From NCBI GenBank assembly GCA_904501965.1, contig CAJGCS010000001.1, forward strand, positions 1-33,481: a stretch of DNA of 33,481 nt, written 5' to 3'. The notes beneath the pieces are model-generated. The model did no database searches and was not told the DNA's origin. It saw only the letters and a program-made list of their open reading frames with translations. Position numbers and translations under genes: made by a program. The stretch's first letter is position 1; each line of letters begins with the position of its first letter. Positions 1,904 through 19,774 of the stretch are shown one piece after another. This DNA is from an uncultured Bacilli bacterium (GTDB lineage Bacteria; Bacillota_I; Bacilli_A; ML615J-28; CAG-313).

Positions 1904-1940
1904 AAAGCACCACTATTTAAGTGGTGCTTTGTTCTTTTTG
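1904..1940. terminator. bidirectional rho-independent terminator between convergent genes
   Basis: AAAGCACCAC (1904-1913), a 7-nt loop, then GTGGTGCTTT (1921-1930) form a perfect 10-bp stem. An A-run lies upstream and a T-rich tract downstream. The stop codon of the minus-strand gene sits at the stem/loop edge. Confidence 0.8.
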
Positions 1941-2788: not shown

Positions 2789-2803
2789 TTTCCCCTCCTA
2801 GTA

Positions 2804-3682: not shown

Positions 3683-3815
3683 AACCCATCCCTCATACAT
3701 AGTTGTCTATAATTCCTAAACATATTATCATAAAATACAAATTTCTTCAAGATTGATTTTTCTAAGTAGCATATTAAAAGGTGTAAGATGCATATGATTA
3801 TATGGTGATGTTTTA

Positions 3816-5087: not shown

Positions 5088-5110
5088 TGAAAACGCTAAA
5101 CTTTTATTTT
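5081..5110 (+). terminator. weak AT-rich hairpin + T-tract after murC
   Basis: AGTTTAG (5081-5087), an 8-nt loop, then CTAAACT (5096-5102), followed by TTTATTTTC. The stem is only 7 bp and includes the murC stop codon. Confidence 0.4.
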
Positions 5111-5147: not shown

Positions 5148-5192
5148 ATATATGTAGAAGGTTGAAATTTTTTGGAAAAGGAGTGTTATAAA

Positions 5193-6236
5193 ATGAGAAA
5201 TTCAGTAAAGAATGAAAATCGTTACAGTAGCCAAATTAAAATTTATGATGTTGCTGGAAGAGCTGGTGTTTCACTTGCAACGGTATCTCGTGTATTAAAT
5301 CACCCCGAAAAAGTAAAGGCTGGTACACGTGAGAAAATCGAGAAAATTATTCGTGAATTAGATTATAAACCTAATCTTAATGCTAAAGGCTTAGCTAGTT
5401 CTAAATCTACAACAGTTGCTGTTGTTGTACCAGAATTAACAAGAAGTTCAATTGCAGGTATGGTTGATGGTATAGCAGATTGCGCTATGCGTAGAGGCTA
5501 TTTATTAAGACTATTCGTTAATCATCCTTCAAAAGAAGAAGGGCAAGGAATGTCATCTGAACATAATTTATGGGGAGAAGTTCTTGCAAGTAGCGTTGAT
5601 GGAGTTTTATATATCAATGATGAAATTACTGAAGAACACCTAGAAATTATTAGAGATGTTAATGTTAACGTTGTTTTAACAAATACAGTATGTAGCGATG
5701 ATTCAGTACCTAGTGTATCAATTGATTATAAAAAAGCAGCATATGAAATTACTAATGAAATGATTAAAAAAGGTAATAAGAAAATTTGGATTATTACATC
5801 ACTGAGAAAATATGTTGTTAATGATTTAAAAGTAGAAGGTTATTTAGAAGCTATGAATGAGGCTGGTTTAGAACCAAGAGTTATTAGTGTTCCTGGTAAA
5901 ATCGGCGCTCATGAAAAAGAATATTATGAGTTATTATCTAAAGAACATCCAGATGTTGCAATTGTTGTTCGTGACTCAATGGCTGTTTCATTTATTAATG
6001 TTGCTCGTAATCTACATATTCATATTCCAGAAGAATTGCAAGTAGTTGGATTCCAAAATACTAAATATGCTGAGTTATCTAGACCAACTTTAACATGTAT
6101 TAATACTCCAATTTATGAAATTGGTGAAGAAGCAATGAACTTATTAACTGAATTAATGGAAAGTGAAGAAGATATAGAAGATACAAAAAAACTTGTTGAT
6201 TATAATGTTGTAAGACGAGAATCAACAAGAAACTAA
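5193..6236 (+). CDS. LacI-family transcriptional regulator (CcpA-like)
   Basis: HTH motif IYDVAGRAGVSLATVSRVLN, then REKIEKIIRELDYKPNLNAKGLAS and a periplasmic-binding-protein-type sugar-sensor domain. The track start at 5172 is TTG. The ATG at 5193 sits 10 nt after AAAGGAG (5176-5182) and is preferred. I cannot tell from sequence alone whether this is the CcpA orthologue or a local regulator. Confidence 0.85.
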   Translation: MRNSVKNENRYSSQIKIYDVAGRAGVSLATVSRVLNHPEKVKAGTREKIEKIIRELDYKPNLNAKGLASSKSTTVAVVVPELTRSSIAGMVDGIADCAMRRGYLLRLFVNHPSKEEGQGMSSEHNLWGEVLASSVDGVLYINDEITEEHLEIIRDVNVNVVLTNTVCSDDSVPSVSIDYKKAAYEITNEMIKKGNKKIWIITSLRKYVVNDLKVEGYLEAMNEAGLEPRVISVPGKIGAHEKEYYELLSKEHPDVAIVVRDSMAVSFINVARNLHIHIPEELQVVGFQNTKYAELSRPTLTCINTPIYEIGEEAMNLLTELMESEEDIEDTKKLVDYNVVRRESTRN

Positions 6237-6254
6237 TAACTATTTAGTAGCTTA

Positions 6255-6460
6255 ATAATGGTAATGTAGAGATCGTTTGTTTGGTGAAAAAACGACAAGT
6301 TATGATGCGAATTATGTATAATTTAATACTCATAAAGCGCAGGATTTTATCTCCTGAATTAAGGTGGTACCGCGGGTATTTTAAAAGAATTGCTCGTCCT
6401 TAAAAAGAAAGTTTAGTTTATGTTATAGCAACTTTACATCTTTTTAAGGACTTTTATTTA
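6255..6460 (+). promoter_or_regulatory. T-box riboswitch leader (tRNA-Tyr-sensing, by context)
   Basis: AGAGA GA-motif (6267-6271). Distal stem I pairs TCGTT/AACGA with a GGTGAAA loop (6282-6288). Stem III is CAGGA...TCCTG (6340-6356). The canonical T-box sequence AAGGTGGTACCGCG lies at 6361-6374. An intrinsic terminator follows, and the downstream gene is tyrS. Candidate Tyr specifier codons are UAU (6317-6319, followed by A) and UAC (6327-6329). I could not fold the specifier loop confidently. Confidence 0.9.
6396..6459 (+). terminator. T-box attenuator terminator
   Basis: GTCCTTAAAAAG (6396-6407) pairs perfectly with CTTTTTAAGGAC (6440-6451). The stem is extended by AAAGTT/AACTTT and followed by TTTTATTT. 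It lies 25 nt before the tyrS ATG. Confidence 0.85.
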
Positions 6461-6483: not shown

Positions 6484-7716
6484 ATGAATTTATTCGAAGA
6501 ATTAAAATGGCGTGAACTTATTCACAATGTTACAGATGAGGAAATAATCGATAAGATAAATAATGGTGGGTTAACATTTTATTTAGGAGCTGACCCTACT
6601 GGTGATAGTTTACATGTAGGACATTTATTAGTTTACATCTTTAGTAAAAGACTTGAAAAACATGGACATCATCCAATATTCTTAATTGGGGGTGCAACTG
6701 GATTTATCGGTGATCCTAAACCTACAGCTGAACGTCAACTTTTATCGGCTGAAACAATTAAGAGAAATGCAGAAAAGATTACTGCACAAGTAAATAAATT
6801 ATTTGAATGTAAGACAGTAAATAACTATGATTGGACACATCAATTAGATATTTTAACATTCTTAAGAGAATATGGTAAATTATTTAATGTTAATTATATG
6901 ATTAATAAAGATACTGTAAAAAGTAGACTTGATAGTGGTATTTCATTTACTGAATTTACATATCAAATTTTACAAGCTTTAGACTTTGAACATTTATACA
7001 AAGCAGAAGGCTGTACTTTACAAGTAGGTGGACAAGACCAATGGGGTAATATTACAGGTGGACTTGAGTTAATTCGTAAAATTCATGGTTTTGACGCAAA
7101 AGCATATGGCGTTACTGTCCCTCTATTTACAAAATCAGATGGTACTAAATTTGGTAAAACAGAAGGCGGAGCTATATGGCTAGATCCTGAGAAAACATCT
7201 CCATATGCTTTCTACCAATTCTGGTATAATACACCTGATGCAGATGTAATTAAAGAATTAAAACAATTTACATTCTTAACAAAAGAAGAAATAGAAGAAC
7301 TTGAAACTTCATTTAATGAAGCACCTCATTTAAGAGCTGCTCAAAAAGCTCTTGCTGCTGAAATGACAAGAATGATTCATGGAGAAGCTGCTCTTGAACA
7401 AGCTATAAATTTATCACAAGCATTATTTAGTGGTAAAGTTGGTTCTTTAACAAAAGAAGAAATTGCCATGGGCTTTGAAGGTGTGCCAACACAAGAAATC
7501 TCAGAAAATATAAATTTAATTGATGCTTTAATGAGCGTTAAAGCAGCTTCATCTAAACGTGAAGCACGTGACTTTATTAATGGTGGTGCTGTTTTAGTAA
7601 ACGGTGTTCAAGTAAAAGATTTAGAATATGTTGTTTCTAAAGAAACTGCTATTGGTAATGAATATACAGTAATTAGAAGAGGAAAGAAAAACTATTACTT
7701 AATTAAACATCAATAA
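6484..7716 (+). CDS. tyrS: tyrosine--tRNA ligase
   Basis: HIGH motif HVGHL, KMSKS motif KFGKT, GGQDQWGNI, and a C-terminal S4-like domain (REARDFINGGAVLVNG). An AAAGGA RBS is present. Confidence 0.95.
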   Translation: MNLFEELKWRELIHNVTDEEIIDKINNGGLTFYLGADPTGDSLHVGHLLVYIFSKRLEKHGHHPIFLIGGATGFIGDPKPTAERQLLSAETIKRNAEKITAQVNKLFECKTVNNYDWTHQLDILTFLREYGKLFNVNYMINKDTVKSRLDSGISFTEFTYQILQALDFEHLYKAEGCTLQVGGQDQWGNITGGLELIRKIHGFDAKAYGVTVPLFTKSDGTKFGKTEGGAIWLDPEKTSPYAFYQFWYNTPDADVIKELKQFTFLTKEEIEELETSFNEAPHLRAAQKALAAEMTRMIHGEAALEQAINLSQALFSGKVGSLTKEEIAMGFEGVPTQEISENINLIDALMSVKAASSKREARDFINGGAVLVNGVQVKDLEYVVSKETAIGNEYTVIRRGKKNYYLIKHQ

Positions 7717-7730
7717 GAAAGAAGGATTGT

Positions 7731-8798
7731 ATGCCTGTAAAAGAATTTAATGATATTATTAGAAAAGCAATAAATGAAGAAAAATTGCCAGGCGCAAATT
7801 ATGTTATTGTAACAAAGAAGAAAAAACATTTCGGTAGTATTGGCCATAAGGCATTAGTTCCATTTATTGAAGAAAACAATATAGATACTCTTTATGATAT
7901 TGCATCAATGTCAAAAGTTATTTCTACTACTTCATGTGCTATGAAACTTGTAGAAAGTGGAAAGATTAGATTATTTGATCCAGTTAAAAGATATATTCCA
8001 GAATTCAAACATGGAAACGTACGCATCTATGACCTTATGACACACACATCAGGAATTAGACCATATTTAGCTGGCGCTGCTAGTATGAAAGATGAATCTG
8101 AAGTTTGGAATAGTATTTTAGAACTTGAATTAGAATATGAAAAAGGTTCAAAAATTCTTTATTCTTGCATTAACTATATTATCTTAGGTAAGCTAATAGA
8201 ACGTGTTAGTGGTATGAAACTTGATGAATTTGCTAAAGAAAATATCTTTATTCCACTTGAAATGAATAGTACATGTTATAACCCAAGCAATATTGAACGT
8301 TGTGCTCCAACAGAAGAACGACGTGATTCTGTTTATCAAGGTGTTTTAAGAGGAAGAGTACATGATGAAATGGCTTATGCTCTTCATGGTGTAAGTGGGA
8401 ATGCGGGCGTATTTTCTTGCGTAGAAGATATTAGTCATTTTATTGAAATGATTCTAAATGATGGTGTTTACAAAGGTAAAAGAATTTTTTCAAAAGCAAC
8501 AATTGATCTATTCTATACACCACAAGTAAAAGAAACACATGGTGTTTACTTAACTGAAGAACTTCGTAGTATCGGTTGGATTGTAAGAGGTGCGAATTCA
8601 TCTGCCGGTGAACTTACAAGTGAAGAAACAATTCTTCATACTGGTTTTACTGGAACTAATATTTGGATTGATAGAAAAAATAAAATTGGTTTCTGCATGT
8701 TAACTAATAGAGTTCATCCTACAAGAGATAATGGCCCTACAGCTTCATTAAGACCTCGTCTTGCAAACTATATAATTTCACATATCGAGGAATACTAA
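7731..8798 (+). CDS. cytoplasmic beta-lactamase-fold serine hydrolase (PBP4*/AmiE/EstB-like)
   Basis: SxxK nucleophile motif SMSK, YSCINYIILG (the YxN block), and HTGFTG (the KTG-equivalent). No signal peptide is present. It starts 14 nt after the tyrS stop with a GAAGGA RBS. Confidence 0.8.
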   Translation: MPVKEFNDIIRKAINEEKLPGANYVIVTKKKKHFGSIGHKALVPFIEENNIDTLYDIASMSKVISTTSCAMKLVESGKIRLFDPVKRYIPEFKHGNVRIYDLMTHTSGIRPYLAGAASMKDESEVWNSILELELEYEKGSKILYSCINYIILGKLIERVSGMKLDEFAKENIFIPLEMNSTCYNPSNIERCAPTEERRDSVYQGVLRGRVHDEMAYALHGVSGNAGVFSCVEDISHFIEMILNDGVYKGKRIFSKATIDLFYTPQVKETHGVYLTEELRSIGWIVRGANSSAGELTSEETILHTGFTGTNIWIDRKNKIGFCMLTNRVHPTRDNGPTASLRPRLANYIISHIEEY

Positions 8799-8799
8799 G

Positions 8800-9768
8800 A
8801 TGATTAGATTATTTACACTAGATGACTTAACAAGTGTTGTTAAGTTATGGAATGAAAATACAGTTTGTTATAAACCATTTACATCGGAAACATTTAAAAC
8901 ACATGTTTTAGAACATCCTGATTTTAAAAGTGATGGTGCATTTGTTTTAGAGGTTGATAACAAAATTATCGGTTTTGCAATAGGACTAATTAGAGAATAT
9001 GAAAAATTAGATGATACAAAACCTGGATATTTACCACTTTTACTAGTAGATAAAAATTATAGAAGAAATGGTTATGGGAAAATGCTCTTAAATCATGTTG
9101 AAGAATATATTAAGCTAAAAGGTAAAAATAAATTAAAAGTAAGCTATAGAAGCACACTTAATTTTCCTTGGTATATTCCAAATACTAATAAACATGACCA
9201 TGCAGGAGCACCAGGTGCATTTGTAAATAGTGATTTATACTTGTTCTTAATTAACAATGAATACTTAGTTGTTGATCATCAAGATGCATTTCATTTAGAT
9301 TTAGAAAAATATGAAATGCCTAAAAAAGTTAAAGAAAAATTAGAAAAAAATAAAGCTGATGGTTATGTAATTGAAACTTATGATGAAAATAGACATTTTG
9401 GTCTTGATGAGTTTTATGAAGATATTAACGATGAAGCATTTATTAGAGTTATTAAACAAAATCTTGCAAAAACTAAACCAAATCCGTTCTTGGTTGTTTC
9501 TAAAGATAACAAAGTCTATGGTTGGACAGGTGCAATGTATACTGAAGAATCAGGAAGAGCGCATTTTGATGGAATTGCAATTTCACCAAAGATAAGAGGA
9601 CTTGGACTTGGACAAGGATTATGGTGTTCTTTGGGTCTTTATTCAAAAGAACATGGCTCTAAATTTATGACATTTTTTACAGGTCGTACAAATCATGCGA
9701 GATATATATATTTAAAATCTGGATTTAAAATTATCCAAAGTTTTGCAATAATGGAAAAGGAGATATAA
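8800..9768 (+). CDS. two-domain GNAT-family N-acetyltransferase
   Basis: Two acetyl-CoA-binding Q/RxxGxG/A motifs are present: RRNGYGK in the N-terminal half and IRGLGLGQG in the C-terminal half. The ATG follows the previous stop immediately (TAAGATG). Confidence 0.75.
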   Translation: MIRLFTLDDLTSVVKLWNENTVCYKPFTSETFKTHVLEHPDFKSDGAFVLEVDNKIIGFAIGLIREYEKLDDTKPGYLPLLLVDKNYRRNGYGKMLLNHVEEYIKLKGKNKLKVSYRSTLNFPWYIPNTNKHDHAGAPGAFVNSDLYLFLINNEYLVVDHQDAFHLDLEKYEMPKKVKEKLEKNKADGYVIETYDENRHFGLDEFYEDINDEAFIRVIKQNLAKTKPNPFLVVSKDNKVYGWTGAMYTEESGRAHFDGIAISPKIRGLGLGQGLWCSLGLYSKEHGSKFMTFFTGRTNHARYIYLKSGFKIIQSFAIMEKEI

Positions 9769-9769
9769 T

Positions 9770-10456
9770 ATGGCAAAAACAATAATGGTAATCGGTGGAC
9801 ACATTGGCGATGCAGAATTAACTGCTGGTGCACTTATGGCAAGTAATGCAGTAGATGGCGGTAAAAATATTACCGTTGCATTAACTGCTGGTGAAAGAGG
9901 AAATCCTGCTCACTTAACACCACAAGAATATAGAGTACAAAAAATTCAAGAAGCAGAAAACTTTGCTAAGTTAGTTAATGGCGAAGCTGTTGTTTTAGAA
10001 TATTGCGATGGTGAACTTCCTAATGATGAAAAAGTTAGAAGAGAAGTAGCTGAATTAATTGTTAAATATAAACCAAATTTAATTATTACACATTGGCGTA
10101 GTAGAATGCATAAAGATCACGATAGAACACATTACATTGTTCAAGATGCACAATTTATGGCAGGTGTAGTTGGTAATAGCGAAGGAAAAAGACATTATGC
10201 TCCAATTTACTTTGCAGAAAACTGGGAAGATGATCATGATTTTGAACCATATATTTATGTTGATGTTACAAAAGGATTTGATCTTTGGTGCAAAGCTCTT
10301 CATGAACATTGGTTTGTAATGAATAGTAAAGATTTCAAATATTATGATTATTATACATCTTTAGCAAGATGCAGAGGTGCTTTATGTAAGAAACAATATG
10401 CAGAATGTTTTAACATCCTTCCGCACCAAAAGAAGGTAATTAAAGATGAACTATAA
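9770..10456 (+). CDS. PIG-L/LmbE-family N-acetylglucosaminyl deacetylase
   Basis: The N-terminus VIGGHIGDAELTAG is a variant of the (A/P)HPDDxE zinc motif. HKDHDRTH supplies the HxxH zinc ligand block. The 228-aa size is typical of the family. Confidence 0.75.
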   Translation: MAKTIMVIGGHIGDAELTAGALMASNAVDGGKNITVALTAGERGNPAHLTPQEYRVQKIQEAENFAKLVNGEAVVLEYCDGELPNDEKVRREVAELIVKYKPNLIITHWRSRMHKDHDRTHYIVQDAQFMAGVVGNSEGKRHYAPIYFAENWEDDHDFEPYIYVDVTKGFDLWCKALHEHWFVMNSKDFKYYDYYTSLARCRGALCKKQYAECFNILPHQKKVIKDEL

Positions 10457-13025
10457 AATAAAAACACTAAAAGGCTTAATTATTTCTTTATCTATAATTT
10501 TAGTGTTTGTATTATCAACATTTGGAGTTGCATTTGCAGAAACTCAATATGTTAAAATATATGATAAAGAAGGTAATACAATTAAACACTATGGAACATA
10601 TAAAGAAGTTGAAATGCCTAGAAATTATTTAACTGCTGAATATGAAATGCGTGGTGTTTGGGTTGCAACTGTATATAACATTGCAATTAGTAAACAAGAA
10701 GGAACTACTCCTGCAGCTATTGAAAAGTATAAACAAGAATTTATCTCTATTTTAGATAGAATGGAAGAGTATAATATGAATACATTATACTTCCAAGTAA
10801 GACCTTCTAATGATGCATTCTATGAATCAGAACTTAATCCATGGAGTCAGTTCTTAGCCGGAGCAGGTGTAAATCCAGGATGGGATCCGCTTGAATGGAT
10901 GGTTACAGAAACTCATAAAAGAGGTTTTGTTTTCCAATGTTGGATGAATGCATTTAGAGTTACTGTTTATAGCGTTTTACCAGGAGAAGATAGTTTAGCT
11001 TCTGAATATACAAATAGTGAATTAATTGCATTCAAAAAAAATGCAATTGCTAAACTTGATGAAGGCAACTTTGCAAGAATTAATCCTGATTGCGTAGTAA
11101 TGGGTGAATCAGACACAAGATTAATTCTTAACCCAAGTGATCCAAGAGTTCAAGAATTTTTAGTCGCAACATGTAAAGAAATTATTGAAAATTATGATGT
11201 TGATGGCTTCCACTTTGATGACTATTTCTATTTATCAGGTGGCGGTGCTGCAAATAACTATAATGGTAACTTTGCAGGTGGCAAAAACTATGATGCAAGT
11301 TTAGTAGGTGAAAATACTTTAAATGACTTACCTTGCTATGAAGCTTATAAACAAGGTAAAGCTGAATATGCTCATTTAGAAAAAGGACTTAATCTTGGTG
11401 ATTTTAGACGTGCAAGTTTAAACCATATGATCAAATCAATTAGATTAATGGTTGATAAATATAATGAAGAACATAATGATGTAGTAGAATTTGGTGCAAA
11501 ACCAGCAGCTGTTTGGCGCAGTAATATTGAATATTGCCGTGAAAACGAATATCGTTGTGTAGAAAACGGTTCTAACACTCATGCTTCTGCATATAGTTCA
11601 TATAATGACTTATATGCTGATACTCTAACTTGGGTAAAAGAAGGTTGGGTAGATTATATGGCACCACAAGTTTATTATGGATTCTCAAGTACAGAAGCTC
11701 CATATGCAGATATCGTTATGTGGTGGGCAGAACAAATTGAACAAGTTAATGCTCAAAGAAGACTTGAAGGTAAAAAAGATATTAAACTTTATATTGCTCA
11801 TGGTATCTATAAATATAGAGATGACAAAAAACAATTTGCTCTTGCAAGTGAAGTGAAGAACCAATTATACTATAATCAAAAGTTTGACTCAATTGTAGGT
11901 TCTGCATTCTATTCATATGAAAACTTATATAAGTTTGTTGACAAAACTCATGAAAATGGTATGAAACTTGTTAAACAAACATGGTCTGAAAAAGTTATCC
12001 CAATTCCTGTTGGTGAAAATGATGCAAAAGGATTAATGGTAGAAGACATCAAAATTCGTAATGCTGTTGGATCTACATCATATTCATTAACATTTGATTT
12101 ATTAGAAAATGCTAATGTATATGCAGTATACAAAGTTAAAAAAGGTGAAACTCTTGACACAAGTGATGTTACAACACGTTCTATTGTTGAATTTGAAGGT
12201 TATCAAGAAAATAAGAGTTTAAGTATTAGTATTGATGATTATGATCCTGAGTATGATTATTACTTTACAGTATTCTCAAAAAGATATCACATGTCAGATG
12301 AGTTTATTAAACTTGACTTTAATTCATCAGTTGAATATACTCCATTAACTGTCCAAGATTCAATTAAACTTGAAAATGCATATTCACCTTCAACAAATGT
12401 TTCTTTCTCACTTGAATCAAAATATGAAGAAGCAAGAACACTTAATTATTCAGTATATGTTGAATATGATGGTGACGAAAGATTAATAGCATCTGGTATT
12501 GTTTTAAATGATGTTATAAATGTTTCATGGAAATCTTGGCCATTTGCATCAATGGAAAATAGAATTAAAGTTGTATATTCTGATGGCGTATTAACTGAAA
12601 CAGTTTATTCAAATTATTTTGATGTTGCCAATGTATTTAATATTACATATGATTTAAATGGAGTAGAAGCTACGCTTGATGCACCAAATGTCTATGTTGA
12701 AGGTAAAGGAATAGAAACTCTTCCAACTCCTACAGAGATTGTTCAAGTAGAAGGAAAGAAAATTACATTTGATGGTTGGTTAAATGAGGCTGGTCAAAAA
12801 GTTACTTCAATTGGTATTTATCAAACTGGCAATGTAAAACTTAAAGCTAACTGGATTATTGAAACAGTTGAAAATCCTAATCCAGAACCACAACCAAATC
12901 CACAACCAAATCCAAACCCACAACCAAATGGTGGATGCTCTTGCTCAAGTACAAGTGCTTCAGTTATTGTTTCTACACTTACTGCACTTTCTCTTGCGGT
13001 TTTGGTATTAAGAAAAAATAAATAA
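10446..13025 (+). CDS. secreted GHL10 (ex-DUF187, YngK-like) glycosidase-like protein A with beta-sandwich domains, a Listeria-Bacteroides (Flg_new) repeat, a Pro-rich linker and a GCSC C-terminal anchor
   Basis: Signal peptide ...FGVAFA/ETQ. GHL10 blocks are RGVWVATVYNI, FQVRPSNDAFYES..NPWS, PGWDPLEWM, DGFHFDDYFY and WVDYMAPQVYY. The Flg_new repeat ITYDLNG...ITFDGWLN...GNVKLKANW lies at about 12640-12855. The tail is PNPEPQPNPQPNPNPQPNGGCSCSS + TM + RKNK. The start overlaps the PIG-L gene by 11 nt. Confidence 0.85.
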   Translation: MNYKIKTLKGLIISLSIILVFVLSTFGVAFAETQYVKIYDKEGNTIKHYGTYKEVEMPRNYLTAEYEMRGVWVATVYNIAISKQEGTTPAAIEKYKQEFISILDRMEEYNMNTLYFQVRPSNDAFYESELNPWSQFLAGAGVNPGWDPLEWMVTETHKRGFVFQCWMNAFRVTVYSVLPGEDSLASEYTNSELIAFKKNAIAKLDEGNFARINPDCVVMGESDTRLILNPSDPRVQEFLVATCKEIIENYDVDGFHFDDYFYLSGGGAANNYNGNFAGGKNYDASLVGENTLNDLPCYEAYKQGKAEYAHLEKGLNLGDFRRASLNHMIKSIRLMVDKYNEEHNDVVEFGAKPAAVWRSNIEYCRENEYRCVENGSNTHASAYSSYNDLYADTLTWVKEGWVDYMAPQVYYGFSSTEAPYADIVMWWAEQIEQVNAQRRLEGKKDIKLYIAHGIYKYRDDKKQFALASEVKNQLYYNQKFDSIVGSAFYSYENLYKFVDKTHENGMKLVKQTWSEKVIPIPVGENDAKGLMVEDIKIRNAVGSTSYSLTFDLLENANVYAVYKVKKGETLDTSDVTTRSIVEFEGYQENKSLSISIDDYDPEYDYYFTVFSKRYHMSDEFIKLDFNSSVEYTPLTVQDSIKLENAYSPSTNVSFSLESKYEEARTLNYSVYVEYDGDERLIASGIVLNDVINVSWKSWPFASMENRIKVVYSDGVLTETVYSNYFDVANVFNITYDLNGVEATLDAPNVYVEGKGIETLPTPTEIVQVEGKKITFDGWLNEAGQKVTSIGIYQTGNVKLKANWIIETVENPNPEPQPNPQPNPNPQPNGGCSCSSTSASVIVSTLTALSLAVLVLRKNK
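12930..13022 (+). other. C-terminal sorting-signal-like module (GGCSCSS motif, 20-aa TM helix, RKNK tail)
   Basis: The translated tail is GGCSCSSTSASVIVSTLTALSLAVLVLRKNK, preceded by a (PNPQ)n linker. The architecture is tripartite, like sortase, exosortase or myxosortase substrates. A second copy sits at 16363..16458. Confidence 0.6.
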
Positions 13026-13032
13026 TAAATTA

Positions 13033-13068
13033 AAAGGCTAAGGTAGTTGTACCTTAGTCTTTATTTTT
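13033..13068 (+). terminator. rho-independent terminator
   Basis: AAAGGCTAAGGTA (13033-13045), loop GTTG, then TACCTTAGTCTTT (13050-13062). The ~13-bp stem includes one G-U pair and is followed by ATTTTT. Confidence 0.8.
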
Positions 13069-13078
13069 GGTAAAACTA

Positions 13079-13107
13079 TTGAAAAAAAATATAGTTTATA
13101 ATATAAT
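13079..13107 (+). promoter_or_regulatory. near-consensus sigma-A promoter
   Basis: TTGAAA (13079-13084), an exact 17-nt spacer, then TATAAT (13102-13107). An AAGGAG RBS precedes the ATG at 13140. Confidence 0.7.
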
Positions 13108-13139
13108 ATAATAAGAGTACTTTCTAAGGAGATATAAAA

Positions 13140-14039
13140 ATGAACAAAATATATGATACACATAGCGATATTTTTCATAATCTTTTTACAAGAAAAGATG
13201 AGGGATGCATAGATCCTTTTGAAAAATATCACTTAGAAAACTTAACAAAAGGAAATATCCAAGGTGGAATTTGGGTAGTTTACGGAGATAAAGATTTTGA
13301 TGTTTATCCTGCATATAAAAAAGCATTAGATGCTTTTGAACCTTATAAAGATAAATATGATGTTATCTATGGATTAGAAGGTTTAAGAAATGTGCATACA
13401 CTTGAAGATTTAAAGAAAATGTATAATTTAGGAATAAGACATGCTAGTCTTACTTGGAACGAGGAAAATCATTTAGCAACTGGTGTTGCAGGTCCTGCCG
13501 AAAGAGGATTAACTGATCTAGGAAAAGAATTTTTAGATTTCATGCAAGAAAATAAAATGATTATTGACGTTTCTCATTTAAATATAAAAAGTTTTTACGA
13601 TGTTTGTGAATATGTAAAAACACCAATTATTGCAAGTCATTCTAATGCATATACACTTTGTAATCATAGAAGAAATTTAAATGACGATCAATTACGAGTG
13701 CTAAAAGAAAAAGGCGGATATGTTGGGGTTGTTTCTGCAAGAAATTTTGTATCACCACAAAATGATAGAAAAACTGTAGCAGGACTTGTAGATCATATTG
13801 AATACATTGCCAATATTATCGGAATCGACCATGTAATGCTTGGCCTTGATATGATGGATTATTTAGATGATTTTAATGATCATAATTCAAACCTTGATGA
13901 TTTAGTAACACATGCCGATGCAAATAATGTTGTTACAGAAATGAGAAAACGAGGCTTTAAAGAAGAAGATATAAATAAAGTAACACATGAAAATTATTTT
14001 GAATTATTAAAGAAAGTAGGAGTTAAAAATGAAAAATAA
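13140..14039 (+). CDS. M19-family (renal-dipeptidase-like) dipeptidase, cytoplasmic
   Basis: N-terminal metal motif DTHSD, plus LTWNEENHLATG, IIDVSHLN and ASHSNA, which are the characteristic M19 amidohydrolase-fold blocks. No signal peptide is present. Confidence 0.8.
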   Translation: MNKIYDTHSDIFHNLFTRKDEGCIDPFEKYHLENLTKGNIQGGIWVVYGDKDFDVYPAYKKALDAFEPYKDKYDVIYGLEGLRNVHTLEDLKKMYNLGIRHASLTWNEENHLATGVAGPAERGLTDLGKEFLDFMQENKMIIDVSHLNIKSFYDVCEYVKTPIIASHSNAYTLCNHRRNLNDDQLRVLKEKGGYVGVVSARNFVSPQNDRKTVAGLVDHIEYIANIIGIDHVMLGLDMMDYLDDFNDHNSNLDDLVTHADANNVVTEMRKRGFKEEDINKVTHENYFELLKKVGVKNEK

Positions 14040-16461
14040 AATTATTAAAATACTATTATTTTTAGTACTTGGTGCTTTAATAACATTTGGATCTTATCAA
14101 AGTGCTAAGGCATGGAATGGTATTGCAACGCTTAAACCTTATACACCTGAGATGGTTGAAATGCGTGCAGTATGGGTTGCAACTGTTTCAAACATTGATT
14201 TTAGAAAACAAGATGGAACAAGCGAAGCTGCAATTAATGATTGGAAAGCTAGATATATAAAAGTTTTAGATAATGCACAAGAAAAAAATCTAAATACAAT
14301 TATTTTCCAAATTAGACCAAATAATGATGCATTCTATCCTTCTAGATATAATCCATGGAGTGAATATTTAGTTGGATATGGTGTTGATCCAGGATGGGAT
14401 CCTCTTGAATGGATGCTTGAAGTTACTCATGAACGTGGTATGGAATTCCATGCATGGCTTAATCCTTATCGTACTTCAACAGCTCATTTAACATTTGACT
14501 TTAAACAAAATGTTGCGGGGACAAATGGTGATTGTATTGTTGATTATGATGAAAAAGCACTTGATACATATAAAGAAACTTTCTTTGGTTCTTTAAAAAC
14601 AAAAGCTGAAGTAAATGGAAAAACTTATGATAATCCAATCTTTGGCGAAGACTTATTACATGATGTTGTACTTGGTGCTGAAGATAAATTTGTATTAAAT
14701 CCTGCATCTGAAAATGTATTAGATCATTTAAACAACACAATTACTGAAATTATTGAAAATTATGATGTTGATGGTATTCATTTTGATGACTACTTCTATC
14801 CAAACGATACAGTTTATAAAGGTGACAAAGCTGAACTAAAAGGCTATACTTTCTCAACAGAACCATATCGTGATATGGAAGATTATAAAGCTTACAAAGA
14901 AAAAGGTGGAAATTTATCAATTTATAATTGGCGCCGTGAAAATATTGATACATTAATTAAAAATTTAAGTGATATCATTCGTGATTTAAATAAAACAAAA
15001 GAAGTTAAATGTTCATTCGGCGTAAGCCCTTGTGCTAGATGGGCACCTAATGAAACTTGTACAGCTTTTGAACGTGGTGCTGAAGGCGGTATGGGCAATG
15101 ACTGTAATAACTATTATGCATATTCTGACCTTTTTGCTGATACAAGAAAATGGGCATTAGAAGAATGGATCGATTATATTGTTCCTCAATGTTATACAAA
15201 TCTTGATAGCGCATATGCAGATATCGTATCTTGGTGGAGTAAAACATTAAAAGATTCAAATACAAAACTATACATTGGCCAAGGTATTTATCAAATACCT
15301 ACTTGGAAAGATAAACTAGAAATGCTTTATCAAGTAAGATATAACCAAAGTTTCGGATATCGTGTAGATGGATATTATTTCTATAACTACACATCAGTTA
15401 TATCTGGCGATGGCGAAAAAGCAATGAATACATTATCAAATGGTATTTGGAAAAGAAATTCGCTAACTCCTACATATGCTGCTTATGAATATTCATCAGA
15501 AGTAAAAGGAAATATAGAAATTACCGATATTATTGAAACTGCAAATGATACTTTAATAATTAATTTTAAAGGCGTTGAAGGTGCTAAGGCATATATGTTA
15601 GTTGAATATGATGGAAATGTTGCGAACCTAGATTTATCTGGCAAAAAATATGTTAACTTAGTATATGGTTCTAATTTACAAATTGAATTTACTCCAGCTG
15701 AAGGAAAAGAATATGTTTTAGTTCCTATTGCAAAAGATAATTCAGTTAAAGAAAATTATACAAAAGTTGATTTAAATATGGTAATTAAAAATAATATCCC
15801 AGAAGTTACTCTTGAAGAAATTCCTTCAGAAGTACTAGCAAAAACTTCAATTGATGTTATTGCTAAGATTAAGGATACTGATAACACTGTATTTGATTAT
15901 GAAGTATTACTTGCGGTAGACTCTGATGAATTTACAAAAGTTGCATCAGGACAAGTTGAAGGTGATACAATAGTTTATACTTGGAAAACATATGTTATTG
16001 CACAGGAAAATATCAGATTTAAAGTAATTGTAAATGATGGAAAAGATAAAGCAGAAGCAATTAGTAATAGTTTCTCAGTTGTTGAAAAAGCTGCACCAGT
16101 AATTTGGAATATTACATATAATTTAGATGGTGGTACAATTACAAATGCTCCAACAACATATGAACAAGGAACTACAACTGCTCTTGTAAATCCGACTAAA
16201 GAAGGATATGAATTTACTGGTTGGTTATTAAATGGCGAGAAAGTAACTAGTATAAATAGCAATCAAACAGGAAATGTTACTCTTCTTGCAACATGGAAAG
16301 AAATAATTAAAGAAGAACCTGTTAATCCAAACCCACAACCACAACCAGGACAAAATGAAAATAAAGGATGTTCATGTGCAAGCTCTAGTGCAGAAATTGT
16401 TGTTTCTACACTTACTGCTGTTTCACTTGCAATTTTAATTTTAAGAAAAAACAGAGGTTAA
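14029..16461 (+). CDS. secreted GHL10 glycosidase-like protein B with the same Flg_new repeat, Pro-rich linker and GCSC C-terminal anchor
   Basis: Signal peptide ...YQSAKA/WNG. GHL10 blocks are RAVWVATVSNIDF, FQIRPNNDAFYPS..NPWS, PGWDPLEWM, HAWLNPYR, DGIHFDDYFYP and WIDYIVPQCY. The Flg_new repeat ITYNLDGG...GYEFTGWLLNG...GNVTLLATW lies at about 16110-16296. The tail is NPNPQPQPGQNENKGCSCASSSAEIVVSTLTAVSLAILILRKNRG. The start overlaps the dipeptidase gene by 11 nt and has an AGGAG RBS. Confidence 0.85.
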   Translation: MKNKIIKILLFLVLGALITFGSYQSAKAWNGIATLKPYTPEMVEMRAVWVATVSNIDFRKQDGTSEAAINDWKARYIKVLDNAQEKNLNTIIFQIRPNNDAFYPSRYNPWSEYLVGYGVDPGWDPLEWMLEVTHERGMEFHAWLNPYRTSTAHLTFDFKQNVAGTNGDCIVDYDEKALDTYKETFFGSLKTKAEVNGKTYDNPIFGEDLLHDVVLGAEDKFVLNPASENVLDHLNNTITEIIENYDVDGIHFDDYFYPNDTVYKGDKAELKGYTFSTEPYRDMEDYKAYKEKGGNLSIYNWRRENIDTLIKNLSDIIRDLNKTKEVKCSFGVSPCARWAPNETCTAFERGAEGGMGNDCNNYYAYSDLFADTRKWALEEWIDYIVPQCYTNLDSAYADIVSWWSKTLKDSNTKLYIGQGIYQIPTWKDKLEMLYQVRYNQSFGYRVDGYYFYNYTSVISGDGEKAMNTLSNGIWKRNSLTPTYAAYEYSSEVKGNIEITDIIETANDTLIINFKGVEGAKAYMLVEYDGNVANLDLSGKKYVNLVYGSNLQIEFTPAEGKEYVLVPIAKDNSVKENYTKVDLNMVIKNNIPEVTLEEIPSEVLAKTSIDVIAKIKDTDNTVFDYEVLLAVDSDEFTKVASGQVEGDTIVYTWKTYVIAQENIRFKVIVNDGKDKAEAISNSFSVVEKAAPVIWNITYNLDGGTITNAPTTYEQGTTTALVNPTKEGYEFTGWLLNGEKVTSINSNQTGNVTLLATWKEIIKEEPVNPNPQPQPGQNENKGCSCASSSAEIVVSTLTAVSLAILILRKNRG
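16363..16458 (+). other. second copy of the GCSC + TM + basic-tail C-terminal sorting-signal-like module
   Basis: The tail is KGCSCASSSAEIVVSTLTAVSLAILILRKNRG. It aligns position-for-position with 12930..13022: G-C-S-C-x-S-[ST]-S-A-x-[IV]-[IV]-V-S-T-L-T-A-[LV]-S-L-A-[VI]-L-[VI]-L-R-K-N. Confidence 0.6.
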
Positions 16462-16464
16462 AAA

Positions 16465-17730
16465 ATGAAACTAAATAAATTTACACAACCTGGAGAAAAT
16501 GTTAGATATTGGTATAATCAAGAAGAAATTGATATTCCAGAATTTAAATATAACGAAAGTGATTTAAGAGGAGCGTGGGTATCAAATGTTGCTAATATAG
16601 ATACACCAAGAGGATTACCTATAGAAGAATACAAAGCGGCTTTAGATAGAATTATTAATAAAGCGGCTGAATATAATATGAATGCTCTTATATTTCAAGT
16701 ACGTCCTACAAATGATGCTTATTACCCATCAAAACTAAATCCATGGTCTCGTTTTATTACAGGAACTGAAGGACAAGATCCAGGATTTGATGTTTTAGAA
16801 TATGTTATTAATGAAGCTGGCAAAAAAGGAATTCGCATTCATGCATGGATGAATCCTTATCGTGTTGGTATGAAACCTATTGATGAATATGGATCAAAAG
16901 AAGCTTACTTAGAAACTTTATCTGAAAACAACTGGGCTAGACTTCATCCAGAACATACTATTTTAGATGGATTAAATAAAGTTATTTTATCTCCATCTCA
17001 TCCTGAAGTTATTAAATTTGTTACTGACTCAATTATGGAAGTTGTAAATAATTATGATGTTGATGGCGTACATATTGATGACTACTTCTATCCTTATGCA
17101 AAAATAGAAGAAGAAAAAGAAATGGATGACTATTTAAAATATCGTGATACTCCTGAACAATCATTTGATGACTTTAGAAGATCTAATGTTGATAAGATGA
17201 TTAAGAGTATTCATGACGCTATGAAAAATTCGCTTAACAAAAAAGGAAATAAAATCGAATTTGGTATTAGCCCATTCGCGATATATCGTTCTAATATCCT
17301 AATTGATCCTGAAACAGGATGGGAAAAAGGTTCATTCCACTCTAAAGGAGTTCTACAATGTTATTTAGGTTTATATTCTGATATTTATCGTTGGATGAAA
17401 GAAGGATGGATTGACTATGTTGTTCCACAACTTTATTTCCCATTTGAAAGACCTGATGTTACATATCATGATTTAACTGCATGGTGGGCAGAAATTTCAA
17501 AAGAAACTGGCACAAAACTTTATACTGGTAATGCGATTTATCAAATGGGTACTCCTGAAAAGAAAGAATGGCAAAATCCAGATGAAATTAAAAATCAATT
17601 ATCTTTCAATTCAAATTTTGAAAATATTAAAGGTTCAATTTTCTTTACATTTAGAGATTTCTTTGAAGGAGAAAATGAAATTAAAAATAAAGCACTTGAG
17701 TCATTAAAGGCTCTTTGGTGCCAAAAATAG
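16465..17730 (+). CDS. GHL10 glycosidase-like protein C: catalytic domain only, no signal peptide (predicted cytoplasmic)
   Basis: RGAWVSNVANID, FQVRPTNDAYYPS..NPWS, HAWMNPYR, DGVHIDDYFYP and WIDYVVPQLY. The 421-aa protein has no N-terminal hydrophobic segment and no C-terminal accessory domains. It starts 4 nt after the previous stop. Confidence 0.8.
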   Translation: MKLNKFTQPGENVRYWYNQEEIDIPEFKYNESDLRGAWVSNVANIDTPRGLPIEEYKAALDRIINKAAEYNMNALIFQVRPTNDAYYPSKLNPWSRFITGTEGQDPGFDVLEYVINEAGKKGIRIHAWMNPYRVGMKPIDEYGSKEAYLETLSENNWARLHPEHTILDGLNKVILSPSHPEVIKFVTDSIMEVVNNYDVDGVHIDDYFYPYAKIEEEKEMDDYLKYRDTPEQSFDDFRRSNVDKMIKSIHDAMKNSLNKKGNKIEFGISPFAIYRSNILIDPETGWEKGSFHSKGVLQCYLGLYSDIYRWMKEGWIDYVVPQLYFPFERPDVTYHDLTAWWAEISKETGTKLYTGNAIYQMGTPEKKEWQNPDEIKNQLSFNSNFENIKGSIFFTFRDFFEGENEIKNKALESLKALWCQK

Positions 17731-17741
17731 TTAAAAATAAG

Positions 17742-17775
17742 TGGTGGTTTTTTATGAAAACCACCATTTTTATTT
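17742..17775 (+). terminator. strong rho-independent terminator
   Basis: TGGTGGTTTT (17742-17751), loop TTATG, then AAAACCACCA (17757-17766), followed by TTTTTATTTTC. Confidence 0.85.
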
Positions 17776-17855: not shown

Positions 17856-17884
17856 TTGAATAAAAACGCTTTCTTTGGTATAAT
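17856..17884 (+). promoter_or_regulatory. sigma-A promoter with extended -10 for the GH20/ABC operon
   Basis: TTGAAT (17856-17861), a 17-nt spacer ending in TGg (17876-17878), then TATAAT (17879-17884). A GAGGTGA RBS precedes the ATG at 17936. The spacer contains a cre-like element, TAAAAACGCTTTCT (17861-17874). Confidence 0.65.
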
Positions 17885-17935: not shown

Positions 17936-19774
17936 ATGTTTAAATCTATTAAAATTGTACCCGTACCAAAAGTATTGAAACTAGAAGATGGGTATTTTAT
18001 TTTGCCTGAAATTGTAACAATTTCTTTCAAAAACTTTGTTAAAGATTTGAATATGTTAAGAGTAATAAAAGCGTTTAGTAAATATTTACCTTCATTCAAA
18101 GTTCAAAACGACTTGTCTTGTGTAAACTTTATTAAAACTGATATTTTAGATAGTGCTTATGAAATCAAAGTAGAAAAAGATCAAATCAATGTTTTTGCAA
18201 GTACTGCATCGGGAATGTTTTACGCTATTCAAACATTAAAACAAATTACTTTTGAAAATAAAGTTAAATGTTGTTATATTAGCGATTACCCTGATTTAAA
18301 AGTCAGAGGGGCAATGCTTGATATAAGTAGAAGTAAAGTTCCTAAGGTAGAAACAATCAAACAGATATTTGATATGCTTGCTTTTTTAAAGTTTAATCAT
18401 GTTGAGTTATATGTTGAAGGATTCTCATATGAATATAAGAGTTTTCCGAATGTCTTAAAAGATGGAAACTATTTAACTGTTGATGAATATAAACTTCTTG
18501 AATCGTATGCGTTTGAAAATTTCTTGGATTTTGTTCCAAATCAAAATGGCTTTGGCCATATGGGTGATTGGCTTCAACTAGATGAGTATAAAGATTTAGC
18601 TGAATGTGTTGACGGATTCACAATCTGGGGTGCATGGCGAAAGACAACAACTTTAAACCCACTTGATGATAGGTCAATTGAACATGTTAAAAAGATGTAT
18701 GCAGATATGATCCCTATTACTAAGTCAAATTATTTCCACATGAATTTTGATGAACCTTATGAGCTTGGACATGGTAAGTCAAAAGAAAAAACTGCTGAGT
18801 CTTCAGTAGAAGATGTATATATTGATTATTTGCATAAACTTTCAAGTGTTGTAAAAGGATATGGAAAAACACCACTTATTTGGGGTGATGTTGTAATTAA
18901 ACATCCCGAAGCAATTAAAAAAATTGATGAAGATATTATCCTAGTCGATTGGGGATACACAAAAACATATCCATTTGAACCACACGCAAAAATGCTTCAT
19001 GAACAAGAAAGAAAGTTCATGTTAGCAGGTGGAACAAGTACTTGGGGAGTTATTACTAGCAGATATCAAGATATGTATGAATCAATTAAAAACTCATGTG
19101 AAAATTCATTTAAATATGGTGGACTTGGTACAATAACTACCGATTGGGGAGATATTGGTCACTTACAATATTTACCTAATTCATATTTGGGATTTATTCA
19201 TGCATCGCTATTTAACTGGAATCAAAGTATTACAGAAGAAGAACATAACGATGTATTTGAAGATGCACTTGAAAAATTTGTTGGTGCTGATGTAAAGGAA
19301 GCTTTATTAAAACTTTCGAGATATACAGAGCTTGAAGGTGAATATAGAGACTATGGAAGTAGATTATTTTATCATATCCTTTGGGCAGAGCACGCACAAA
19401 ATAATGAATCACCACTTGATTTCTTCTTAACAAAGATGAAGAGCAACTATTTAAGTGTTGATTCTCAAAATAAAATATCAGATTTATTAAATGAAGTATA
19501 TGAAAAATTGTTTAAACTAGAAAGCCTTGAAGCAAAAGAATTATTAAATTCAATAAGCTTACTTAAGACTTTACTAGAAATTAATAAAAAGCTTCAAGCT
19601 TCTTGTACTGATTTTAGGAGTGAAATTAGTGCGCTAGATGACTTCGAAGCAAATCATCTTGCTCTTTGGAATAATCGTAACAAAGAAGCAGGTTTTAAAT
19701 TCTCTATTAATCGTATTAAATGGTTAAAACAAATATTAGTTCAAATAGAAATGAAGGGAGACAAAAATGAGTAG
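17936..19774 (+). CDS. GH20-family beta-N-acetylhexosaminidase-like protein, cytoplasmic
   Basis: GH20b N-domain pattern IVPVPKVLKLEDGYFIL...YEIKVEKDQINVFASTASGMFYAIQTLKQI. The catalytic domain has VRGAMLDISRSKVP (compare RGxMLDxxRHF) and a D-E pair in HMNFDEPYELG (compare H(I/L)GGDE). No signal peptide is present. Confidence 0.75.
   Translation: MFKSIKIVPVPKVLKLEDGYFILPEIVTISFKNFVKDLNMLRVIKAFSKYLPSFKVQNDLSCVNFIKTDILDSAYEIKVEKDQINVFASTASGMFYAIQTLKQITFENKVKCCYISDYPDLKVRGAMLDISRSKVPKVETIKQIFDMLAFLKFNHVELYVEGFSYEYKSFPNVLKDGNYLTVDEYKLLESYAFENFLDFVPNQNGFGHMGDWLQLDEYKDLAECVDGFTIWGAWRKTTTLNPLDDRSIEHVKKMYADMIPITKSNYFHMNFDEPYELGHGKSKEKTAESSVEDVYIDYLHKLSSVVKGYGKTPLIWGDVVIKHPEAIKKIDEDIILVDWGYTKTYPFEPHAKMLHEQERKFMLAGGTSTWGVITSRYQDMYESIKNSCENSFKYGGLGTITTDWGDIGHLQYLPNSYLGFIHASLFNWNQSITEEEHNDVFEDALEKFVGADVKEALLKLSRYTELEGEYRDYGSRLFYHILWAEHAQNNESPLDFFLTKMKSNYLSVDSQNKISDLLNEVYEKLFKLESLEAKELLNSISLLKTLLEINKKLQASCTDFRSEISALDDFEANHLALWNNRNKEAGFKFSINRIKWLKQILVQIEMKGDKNE

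Follow-up and report, generated by a model that had tools for sequence, protein, structure and literature searches.

A probable peptidoglycan fragment utilisation locus encoding three GHL10 proteins in an uncultured lineage of low-GC Bacilli

Cwp19 of C. difficile is a peptidoglycan (PG) lytic transglycosylase that releases 1,6-anhydro-muropeptides from PG, along with hydrolytic products (PMC6016235), and DigH (YddW) of E. coli breaks down denuded glycan strands (PMC12288456). In B. subtilis, the murQ-murR-murP-amiE-nagZ-namZ operon provides for stepwise removal of N-acetylglucosamine (GlcNAc), stem peptide and N-acetylmuramic acid (MurNAc) through a hexosaminidase, an amidase of the beta-lactamase fold and a muramidase, and encodes the uptake system (PMC8054146, PMC5061867). 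Here we describe a locus that shares the GHL10 catalytic domain with Cwp19 and DigH and, by prediction, the stepwise scheme with the B. subtilis operon. It was found in a 33,481-nt stretch of DNA from an uncultured Bacilli bacterium (contig CAJGCS010000001.1; ~30% GC; hereafter the window), where three GHL10 paralogues (A, B and C) are encoded between positions 7731 and 17730 together with a beta-lactamase-fold serine hydrolase, a tandem GNAT protein, a PIG-L-fold protein and an M19 dipeptidase. All results were obtained by sequence analysis. They suggest that the region 7731-17730 is the enzymatic half of a probable PG fragment utilisation locus. Its carrier belongs to an uncultured, mycoplasma-related lineage of low-GC Bacilli with Acholeplasmatales and Anaeroplasma among its relatives; every catalytic step and imported species named below is a prediction. 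A first-pass annotation of this DNA had stated that GHL10 was without a well-characterised substrate, a view made outdated by the activity of Cwp19 and DigH on PG.

The seven open reading frames (ORFs) between 7731 and 17730 were all present on the + strand at the coordinates given earlier, and each carried the domain the first-pass annotation had named, with Pfam scores above the gathering score in every case. The three GHL10 domains lay within 7.3 kb and had Pfam E-values of 1e-46 to 1e-63 (gathering score 27.9 bits), excluding a chance result. C matched the Cwp19 structure 5OQ2 with an E-value of 2.5e-74. The catalytic domains of A, B and C were 34-35% identical to one another, 37-39% identical to Cwp19 and 30-32% identical to DigH, with the conserved Asp-Asp-Tyr, Arg and Trp of the DigH domain present in all three. 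The earlier reading of the motifs was exact: one conserved block read FQCWMNAFR in A, FHAWLNPYR in B and IHAWMNPYR in C, and DGxHxDDYFY was found in all three. The Cwp19 pocket residues W36, Q77, W127, R132, D195, D196, Y197, S250, Q295, Y297, G328, F367 and S368 (PMC5765458) were mapped on an alignment of DigH, A, B and C, their orthologues and 22 domains of related tandem proteins. B, C, all their orthologues and the tandem domains retained the canonical Cwp19 pocket, apart from conservative changes at positions 367 and 368, and DigH retained 12 of the 13 residues. Unlike Cwp19, A and its five orthologues shared four substitutions, H125Q/M/V, P130A, S250K and G328A (Cwp19 numbering); those at 250 and 328 depart from the pocket set, and those at 125 and 130 sit in the HAWxNPYR block. 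A retained W36, Q77, R79, W127, N129, R132, H193, D195, D196, Y197, Q295 and Y297. Judged from the alignment, the divergence of A looks like lineage-specific, conserved pocket remodelling rather than the decay of a dead enzyme. Of the two roles suggested earlier for A, altered specificity agrees with this real and conserved divergence; a binding-only role is unlikely because D195, D196 and Y197, together with R132 and W127, were kept in all A orthologues.

A and B carried signal-like hydrophobic N-terminal segments (12-residue hydropathy of 3.25 and 2.97, respectively) and ended in a Pro-rich linker, a GCSC motif, a transmembrane helix and a basic tail (RKNK in A). No N-terminal hydrophobic segment was present in C, the serine hydrolase, the GNAT, the PIG-L protein, the M19 dipeptidase or the GH20 enzyme encoded further downstream. 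Hydropathy and the C-terminal helices thus bore out the predicted export and anchoring of A and B and the lack of a signal peptide in the other proteins. A hydrophobic N-terminus was also absent from every near-full-length C orthologue from Bacilli, Acholeplasmatales and Izemoplasmatales loci. Cwp19 is likewise exported and attached to the surface; however, it is an autolysin held on the producer's own wall by CWB2 repeats, whereas A and B have a C-terminal transmembrane anchor and C is cytoplasmic. DigH acts on peptide-free strands, the substrate expected here once an amidase has acted. However, it is an outer-membrane lipoprotein located at the divisome, where its target is the septal PG of the cell that makes it, and it is present as a single copy without linked import or catabolic genes, unlike the locus described here. 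The C-termini of the exported GHL10 proteins (12930-13022 and 16370-16458 in the window; orthologues in loci L001-L057) had a recurrent composition, in which a Pro/acidic linker was followed by Gly-Cys-x-Cys or Lys-Gly-Cys-Lys-Lys, a transmembrane helix and an Arg/Lys tail; they contained no LPXTG and matched no NCBIfam model. In many double-GHL10 proteins of the Izemoplasma type, Gly-Cys stood immediately before the transmembrane helix. This C-terminus may be an undescribed sorting or lipidation signal in sortase-poor lineages.

Homologous loci were collected in a species-representative scan and the window proteins were mapped on them; gene presence was counted in the 14 loci, window included, that had enough upstream flank (Table 1). 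The order of the locus was conserved in about 14 species-level metagenome-assembled genomes (MAGs), labelled Bacilli, Acholeplasmatales UBA11505, Anaeroplasma bactoclasticum, Erysipelotrichaceae SIG222 or uncultured Mollicutes. Because gene order was conserved across loci, the objection anticipated in the first-pass annotation, namely a cluster without conservation, does not arise. The consensus order was (MurC-LacI-TyrRS)-hydrolase-(GNAT)-(PIG-L)-(A)-M19-B-C-GH20-SBP-permease-permease-RCC1-Yip1, where SBP is a solute-binding protein. The block of hydrolase, GNAT and PIG-L genes was rejected as a universal part, since loci L006 and L010 began at the M19 gene and had only housekeeping genes upstream. 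Several contigs with a Bacilli-type locus, L010 (JAMPDF010000007.1), L018, L033 and L037, came from MAGs labelled Prevotella, Bacteroidales, Victivallis or Falkowbacteria, for which mis-binning or mislabelling is the likeliest explanation, rather than horizontal transfer.

Genes specific to PG were found beside the GHL10 genes in more distant relatives. In 15 distant loci from Izemoplasmatales, Acholeplasmataceae and Mariniplasma MAGs, a gene for AnmK (541.7 bits against an equivalog cut-off of 435) lay just 5' of a C orthologue of ~405 aa with ~40% identity and no signal segment. The C gene was followed 3' by a gene for one exported protein of 1270-1485 aa with a pair of GHL10 domains, after which came the same serine hydrolase gene; this hydrolase gene adjoined GHL10 genes in at least 13 of the distant loci with AnmK. 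A MurR/RpiR regulator and a GlcD-like FAD oxidase with EtfAB were also encoded upstream, often with a BadF/G-type sugar kinase and a GH4 enzyme, and a protein with Big_2 and Amidase_2 domains, the latter a MurNAc-L-Ala amidase domain, was encoded downstream. The upstream series in L023-L040 (e.g., L026, 1827-9996) comprised EtfB, EtfA, the GlcD-like oxidase, the MurR-like regulator, AnmK, the BadF/G kinase and GH4; EtfB, EtfA and the oxidase may form a D-lactate dehydrogenase complex, which would fit lactate released from MurNAc. No MurQ was found inside the 10-kb flank of the Izemoplasma/Acholeplasma-type loci. In L027 (4979-7198) and L030 (6548-8833) the M19 dipeptidase was fused to a complete diaminopimelate decarboxylase, LysA (TIGR01048, 443 bits against a cut-off of 297.9), and in L027 an LdcA-like S66 LD-carboxypeptidase was encoded between PIG-L and C. 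Read as a Rosetta-stone fusion, M19-LysA suggests that the M19 enzyme releases meso-diaminopimelate (mDAP), e.g., from mDAP-D-Ala. Since AnmK, a muramoyl amidase, an LD-carboxypeptidase and a dipeptidase linked to diaminopimelate have no role in the use of chitin or mucin, they tie the module of GHL10 proteins and serine hydrolase to PG. The AnmK and MurR-like regulator genes beside the GHL10 genes further point to 1,6-anhydroMurNAc, i.e., lytic transglycosylase products. An AnmK homologue was also encoded within 3-4 kb of a GHL10 gene in Flavobacterium segetis (L074) and a member of the Flavobacteriaceae (L083), and the association of GHL10 with anhydroMurNAc may be broader than Bacilli.

The enzymes around the GHL10 trio could be matched to putative steps of PG breakdown. 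The best NCBIfam model for the serine hydrolase was PBP4B (E=1.1e-49), which was ahead by 30 orders of magnitude in E-value. The protein was 34% identical over 315 aa to YfeW/PBP4B of E. coli (E=7e-49), and the alignment paired SMSK with SNTK (SxxK), YSC with YSD and HTG with HTG. In E. coli, yfeW is the third gene of the murQ-murP-yfeW operon (PMC5061867), and the equivalent B. subtilis operon encodes the exo-MurNAc-L-Ala amidase AmiE (PMC8054146). By analogy with these operons, we propose the serine hydrolase as a putative MurNAc-L-Ala amidase. The M19 protein matched PDB entry 3NEH, a Listeria protein of the renal dipeptidase family (E=5e-27), and contained THSD (residues 7-10), YGLEGL, DVSHLN and ASHSN, which, judged from the family motifs, are candidate sites of the binuclear-zinc ligands (HxD, bridging Glu and two His). 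M19 enzymes prefer L-Xaa-D-Xaa dipeptides, and cleavage of such dipeptides from the stem peptide is proposed for this one.

For the GNAT protein, a profile of orthologues gave as its top PDB match 5KGA, the glucosamine N-acetyltransferase of C. acetobutylicum (E=4.4e-13). The AlphaFold model (predicted local distance difference test, pLDDT, 94.3) led Foldseek to 5KF1 over the full length (E=2.7e-18, template-modelling score 0.67), and the second distinct match was 4ZM6, a fungal GH3-linked glucosamine N-acetyltransferase. A putative role as a glucosamine or glucosaminide N-acetyltransferase is proposed. GlmA of C. acetobutylicum, the best profile and structural match, is a tandem GNAT of ~325 aa like the window protein; however, identity between the two was only 21%, structural similarity stayed at the score given above, and the window gene was present in only 5 of 14 loci. 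The GlmA study reportedly proposed that glucosamine (GlcN) in N-deacetylated muropeptides is re-acetylated during recycling. The GlmA-like GNAT gene stood directly 5' of the PIG-L gene in six loci. A mycothiol or bacillithiol pathway was considered for this pair and rejected: BshB1/BshB2 scored far below cut-off, MshD was a distant structural match and the context is catabolic.

On these assignments a route can be drawn up in which fragments are cut at the surface, imported and dismantled inside. The tethered B, with its canonical site, and A, with its altered pocket, would cut MurNAc-beta-1,4-GlcNAc bonds in glycan strands as Cwp19 and DigH do, A with an altered specificity, perhaps for a modified glycan. 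The giant SBP would capture the oligosaccharide or muropeptide products and the CUT1-type ATP-binding cassette (ABC) permeases would import them. In the cytoplasm, GH20 would take off terminal GlcNAc, the PBP4B/AmiE-like hydrolase would take the stem peptide off MurNAc, and C would cut the remaining MurNAc-GlcNAc linkages. The M19 enzyme would cut L-D dipeptides of the stem peptide, e.g., mDAP-D-Ala or L-Ala-D-Glu, the GlmA-like GNAT would re-acetylate the GlcN of N-deacetylated PG so that GH20 can act, and the PIG-L-fold protein would process an amino-sugar intermediate. The first-pass annotation had likewise expected extracellular GHL10 cleavage of a polymer such as PG with cytoplasmic dismantling of the fragments, and this expectation is supported by the function of Cwp19 and DigH, the match of C to Cwp19, the conservation of the locus and the PG-recycling neighbours.

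Compared with the B. subtilis operon, only the beta-lactamase-fold component is homologous. Here GH20 would stand in for the GH3 enzyme NagZ and GHL10 for the GH171/DUF1343 enzyme NamZ, while uptake by the MurP phosphotransferase system (PTS) would be replaced by an ABC importer and its giant SBP; the three B. subtilis exo-enzymes are secreted, whereas their window counterparts lack signal peptides, and the steps would be moved to the cytoplasm. Cytoplasmic muropeptide glycosidases are known in NagZ (GH3) of Gram-negatives and the 6-phospho-N-acetylmuramidase MupG of Staphylococcus aureus. They are precedents for cleaving PG disaccharides inside the cell after import, as proposed for GH20 and C, although their folds and families are unrelated. 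The substrate of MupG has to be phosphorylated by a PTS; uptake here relies on an ABC system, and the substrate in this locus is therefore presumably unphosphorylated. Compared with AnmK/MurQ recycling of the E. coli type, the Izemoplasma/Acholeplasma-type relatives have AnmK and a MurR-like regulator beside the GHL10 genes; however, the window has neither AnmK nor MurQ and import is not via AmpG.

Several observations weigh against a PG fragment utilisation locus of this design. The serine hydrolase scored 169.4 bits, below the PBP4B equivalog cut-off of 385, and PBP4B itself has been described as a weak DD-carboxypeptidase and not as an amidase (PMC5061867). No MurQ, AnmK, MurNAc kinase or gamma-D-Glu-DAP peptidase was found among the ORFs of the 33-kb window, nor was a SIS-domain etherase or a PTS gene; the locus would work like a MurNAc recycling operon and yet is not one. 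The PG-binding domains LysM, SH3b and SPOR were not recognised in A, B or the SBP by domain searches. DogH, a GHL10 protein of Deinococcus, has been reported to be active on starch (PMC9967864); a DogH-like activity was rejected for A, B and C, as their context contains no alpha-glucan-related gene. The PIG-L protein is a further difficulty. In de-N-acetylases of the MshB/BshB type, the general-base Asp is the second residue after the His of AHPDD. The metal-binding residues H11 and D14 and the HKDH motif were present in the window protein and conserved in its orthologues; however, GGHIGD replaced AHPDD in this protein and all 10 orthologues, so that the canonical general base (His+2) is missing. 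The best PDB match was the hydratase GalB (5cgz), with the same Asp loss (AHSAD), and a diacetylchitobiose deacetylase with PHPDD (8bgn) was also among the best matches. Izemoplasma-type loci encode another PIG-L protein with a canonical motif (AHQDD). The role of GlcNAc deacetylase assigned earlier agrees with the fold and the metal motifs, but it is insecure because the canonical general-base Asp is missing in all orthologues; from its motifs, the protein may have an activity other than de-N-acetylation. The pairing of an acetyltransferase with an adjoining putative deacetylase is also without an explanation in the proposed route.

The same genes could serve the producer's own wall, with A and B acting as autolysins or remodelling enzymes and the other proteins recycling turnover products, and we regard this as unlikely, though it is the strongest of the alternatives. 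Cwp19 and DigH both have the PG of their producer as substrate, the MurC-like ligase encoded 2.6 kb upstream, which recurs there in four other loci, has its GTHGKTT motif intact, and a thin wall is predicted from some genomes of Anaeroplasmataceae, RFN20 and RF39 (PMC10868615). However, C, the exported GHL10 pair, the hydrolase, AnmK and the amidase are kept in Izemoplasmatales and Acholeplasmataceae, which are predicted to be PG-less (PMC10868615); a cultured relative of Izemoplasma was wall-less by transmission electron microscopy (PMC8397711). Capture of an external substrate is also suggested by the giant SBP, with its extension resembling a carbohydrate-binding module (CBM), and by an organisation like that of a polysaccharide utilisation locus (PUL), and membrane-tethered enzymes on Pro-rich stalks fit an outward reach. 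According to the passage of PMC5165256 that cites Robinson et al. 1975, Anaeroplasma bactoclasticum is classically bacteriolytic, and the locus in a MAG labelled with that name was counted in favour of foreign PG. The window alone does not decide between own and foreign wall.

Import of the products for biosynthesis is somewhat less probable still. On this account the locus would salvage MurNAc, GlcNAc or stem-peptide blocks for a lineage without the early steps of PG precursor synthesis, an auxotrophy like that of Tannerella. A need for scavenged muropeptides is predicted for lineages in this part of Bacilli (PMC10868615), and MurC adjoins the locus in five loci. However, the M19 enzyme and, in relatives, LysA and the D-lactate-dehydrogenase-like FAD oxidase with Etf would destroy the building blocks, the MurC gene ends in a terminator of its own, with the regulator and tyrS between it and the locus, and the module is carried by PG-less lineages too. 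It is very improbable that the target is another N-acetylhexosamine polymer (chitin or chitosan, poly-N-acetylglucosamine (PNAG), host mucin or N-glycans) with the peptidase-type genes as passengers. GH20, a PIG-L protein related to diacetylchitobiose deacetylase and a GlcN N-acetyltransferase fold would all fit chitin or chitosan catabolism, the regulator is of the LacI type and the importer of the sugar type, and no MurNAc-specific enzyme is encoded in the window. Such a target nevertheless leaves the M19 dipeptidase (14/14 loci), the PBP4B-like hydrolase (12/14), M19-LysA, LdcA, AnmK and Amidase_2 unexplained, and Cwp19 was inactive on a panel of common glycans, a panel outside which chitin lay (PMC5765458). 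The substrate list of the first-pass annotation is narrowed accordingly: PG is supported, whereas chitin, PNAG and host glycans would account for a much smaller share of the genes.

PG recycling is known in its enzyme families and its overall logic; this assembly of genes appears to be new. The searchable literature yielded no account of the locus, of GHL10 proteins forming a cytoplasmic subfamily, or of PG use by these lineages. PG is among the most abundant polymers of the gut, and fragments of it act as strong immune signals. To our knowledge, which gut organisms consume PG, and how, is poorly known. Beyond the PG utilisation locus itself, we tentatively put forward a wider proposal, of which we are less than convinced: mycoplasma-related Bacilli with a thin wall or none, Anaeroplasma-like ones in the gut and Izemoplasma/Acholeplasma-like ones in sediments, would share an ancient PUL-like PG locus and feed on the walls of other bacteria, by means of a GHL10 trio comprising two surface-tethered enzymes and a cytoplasmic subfamily acting as an intracellular muramidase or lytic transglycosylase. 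If this wider proposal were true, the bacteriolysis classically described for Anaeroplasma bactoclasticum would gain a genetic basis, and A and the Asp-less PIG-L protein would perform new chemistries on modified (e.g., N-deacetylated or O-acetylated) PG. If the locus works as proposed in the main reading, widespread uncultured, genome-reduced Bacilli would be PG consumers, GHL10 would be extended from two autolysin-type enzymes to nutrient acquisition, its cytoplasmic subfamily included, the whole NagZ/NamZ/MurP scheme would have undergone non-orthologous replacement, and there would be candidate genes for the bacteriolytic phenotype known in Anaeroplasma for decades. The muropeptide scavenging that has been predicted in these lineages (PMC10868615) would also be touched by this. 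Testable targets are the specificity of A against that of B, the proposed muramidase role of C inside the cell, the link between M19 and LysA, and the PIG-L protein that lacks the Asp.

All genes from 3816 onward were on the + strand (Table 1). The first description was right on the gene overlaps (11 nt each, at 10446 and 14029) and on the short gaps, which measure 1, 1 and 3 nt, but in describing tight coupling it had overlooked a 114-nt gap 3' of A and a 205-nt gap 3' of C. In each of these gaps a terminator-like hairpin preceded a strong promoter-like site, the two sites being the best of the region. About three transcription units are predicted from the two pairs, on account of which a single tight operon was rejected. 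The genes assigned earlier to a cluster at 7731-17730 are real; however, the locus is longer, with the genes from GH20 through DUF5696 lying downstream. The functional unit extends past 17730 to at least 30265 and probably reaches on into the DUF5696 gene.

Table 1. Features of the window, with the evidence for each and the presence of genes among 14 loci
Feature	Position	Strand	Evidence and properties	Loci
MurC-like Mur ligase	3816-5087	+	NCBIfam murC E=1.6e-80, 271 bits, below the 335 cut-off	
LacI/CcpA-family regulator	5172-6236	+	Pfam LacI and Peripla_BP_3; NCBIfam ccpA 250 bits, below cut-off	
T-box leader 5' of tyrS	6236-6404	+	RF00230 65.4 bits (gathering score 93), E=2.9e-14, local search	
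Tyrosyl-tRNA synthetase, tyrS	6484-7716	+	Pfam tRNA-synt_1b	
Beta-lactamase-fold serine hydrolase, PBP4B/AmiE-like	7731-8798	+	PF00144 177 bits; no signal segment	12/14
Tandem GNAT, GlmA-like	8800-9768	+	Two Pfam GNAT domains; accessory	5/14
PIG-L/LmbE-fold protein, variant subfamily	9770-10456	+	PF02585 66 bits (gathering score 28.2); accessory	9/14
GHL10 A	10446-13025	+	PF02638 156.8 bits, Flg_new repeat; exported, membrane-anchored; accessory	6/14
Terminator-like hairpin 3' of A	13033-13062	+	13-pair stem and T-run	
Promoter-like site 5' of M19 gene	13079-13107	+	TTGAAA-17-TATAAT, 11/12; best + strand site in scanned region	
M19 dipeptidase, cytoplasmic	13140-14039	+	PF01244 222 bits (gathering score 26); core gene	14/14
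GHL10 B	14029-16461	+	PF02638 186.9 bits, Flg_new; exported, membrane-anchored, canonical active site; core gene	13/14
GHL10 C	16465-17730	+	PF02638 214.1 bits; catalytic domain only, cytoplasmic; core gene	14/14
Terminator-like hairpin 3' of C	17739-17769	+	14-pair stem and T-run	
Promoter-like site 5' of GH20 gene	17856-17884	+	TTGAAT-17-TATAAT, upstream TG	
GH20 beta-N-acetylhexosaminidase, cytoplasmic	17936-19774	+	PF00728 and PF02838; PDB GH20 matches; no signal segment; core gene	14/14
Membrane-tethered SBP, 1332 aa	19767-23765	+	SBP_bac_8 at residues 996-1231	14/14 (importer)
Two ABC sugar-type permeases	23780-25144, 25146-26171	+	BPD_transp_1; UgpA/UgpE/MalG-like	14/14 (importer)
Exported RCC1-repeat/NHL protein, C-terminal transmembrane helix, 1101 aa	26190-29495	+	WD40_RLD 300.9 bits, RCC1, NHL; conserved in loci	
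Yip1-domain membrane protein	29495-30265	+	PF04893 59 bits; conserved in loci	
DUF5696 protein, N-terminal transmembrane helix, >1066 aa	30283-33481, leaves window	+	Open frame; PF18952 E=1.8e-119	

Upstream of the serine hydrolase gene, the MurC-like gene had its own terminator-like site at 5078-5105. It adjoined the locus in L004, L007, L008 and L013 as well (five species with the window), and whether it is part of the system is uncertain. The LacI-type regulator, kept upstream in at least 10 loci, is a candidate regulator of the locus. No match to a cre/LacI-type operator (TGWNANCGNTNWCA, one mismatch allowed) was found, and no operator is proposed. The T-box leader surfaced only in a local search by E-value, as an Rfam scan of the whole window at the gathering threshold returned none; inspection of the sequence showed that it contains the GGTGGTACCGCG box. 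Only 14 nt separated the end of tyrS from the hydrolase gene, and the interval from 7716 to 7731 contained no terminator-like site. Given the T-box and this missing terminator, the first sub-operon may be transcribed by read-through from a tRNA-Tyr-sensing leader. The adjacency of LacI, TyrRS and hydrolase genes was kept in at least 10 species loci. The genes at the 5' end of the window were not evidently connected with the locus. They comprised the 3' part of a gene (1-455) with a weakly GH9-like product (18 bits, below the Pfam gathering score), a stand-alone condensation-domain protein of the non-ribosomal peptide synthetase type (534-1898; 84 bits) and, on the - strand, two TMEM164-related integral membrane acyltransferase-like proteins (1913-3700).

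Downstream, the SBP and permeases were of the sugar (CUT1) type. The SBP had an N-terminal hydrophobic segment and a long N-terminal extension with weak matches to CBM_35 and Golvesin_C, and its SBP_bac_8 domain was confined to the C-terminal third. The genes for the RCC1/NHL, Yip1 and DUF5696 proteins trailed those of the ABC permeases and were conserved together with them. The three look like an uncharacterised accessory module of the importer.

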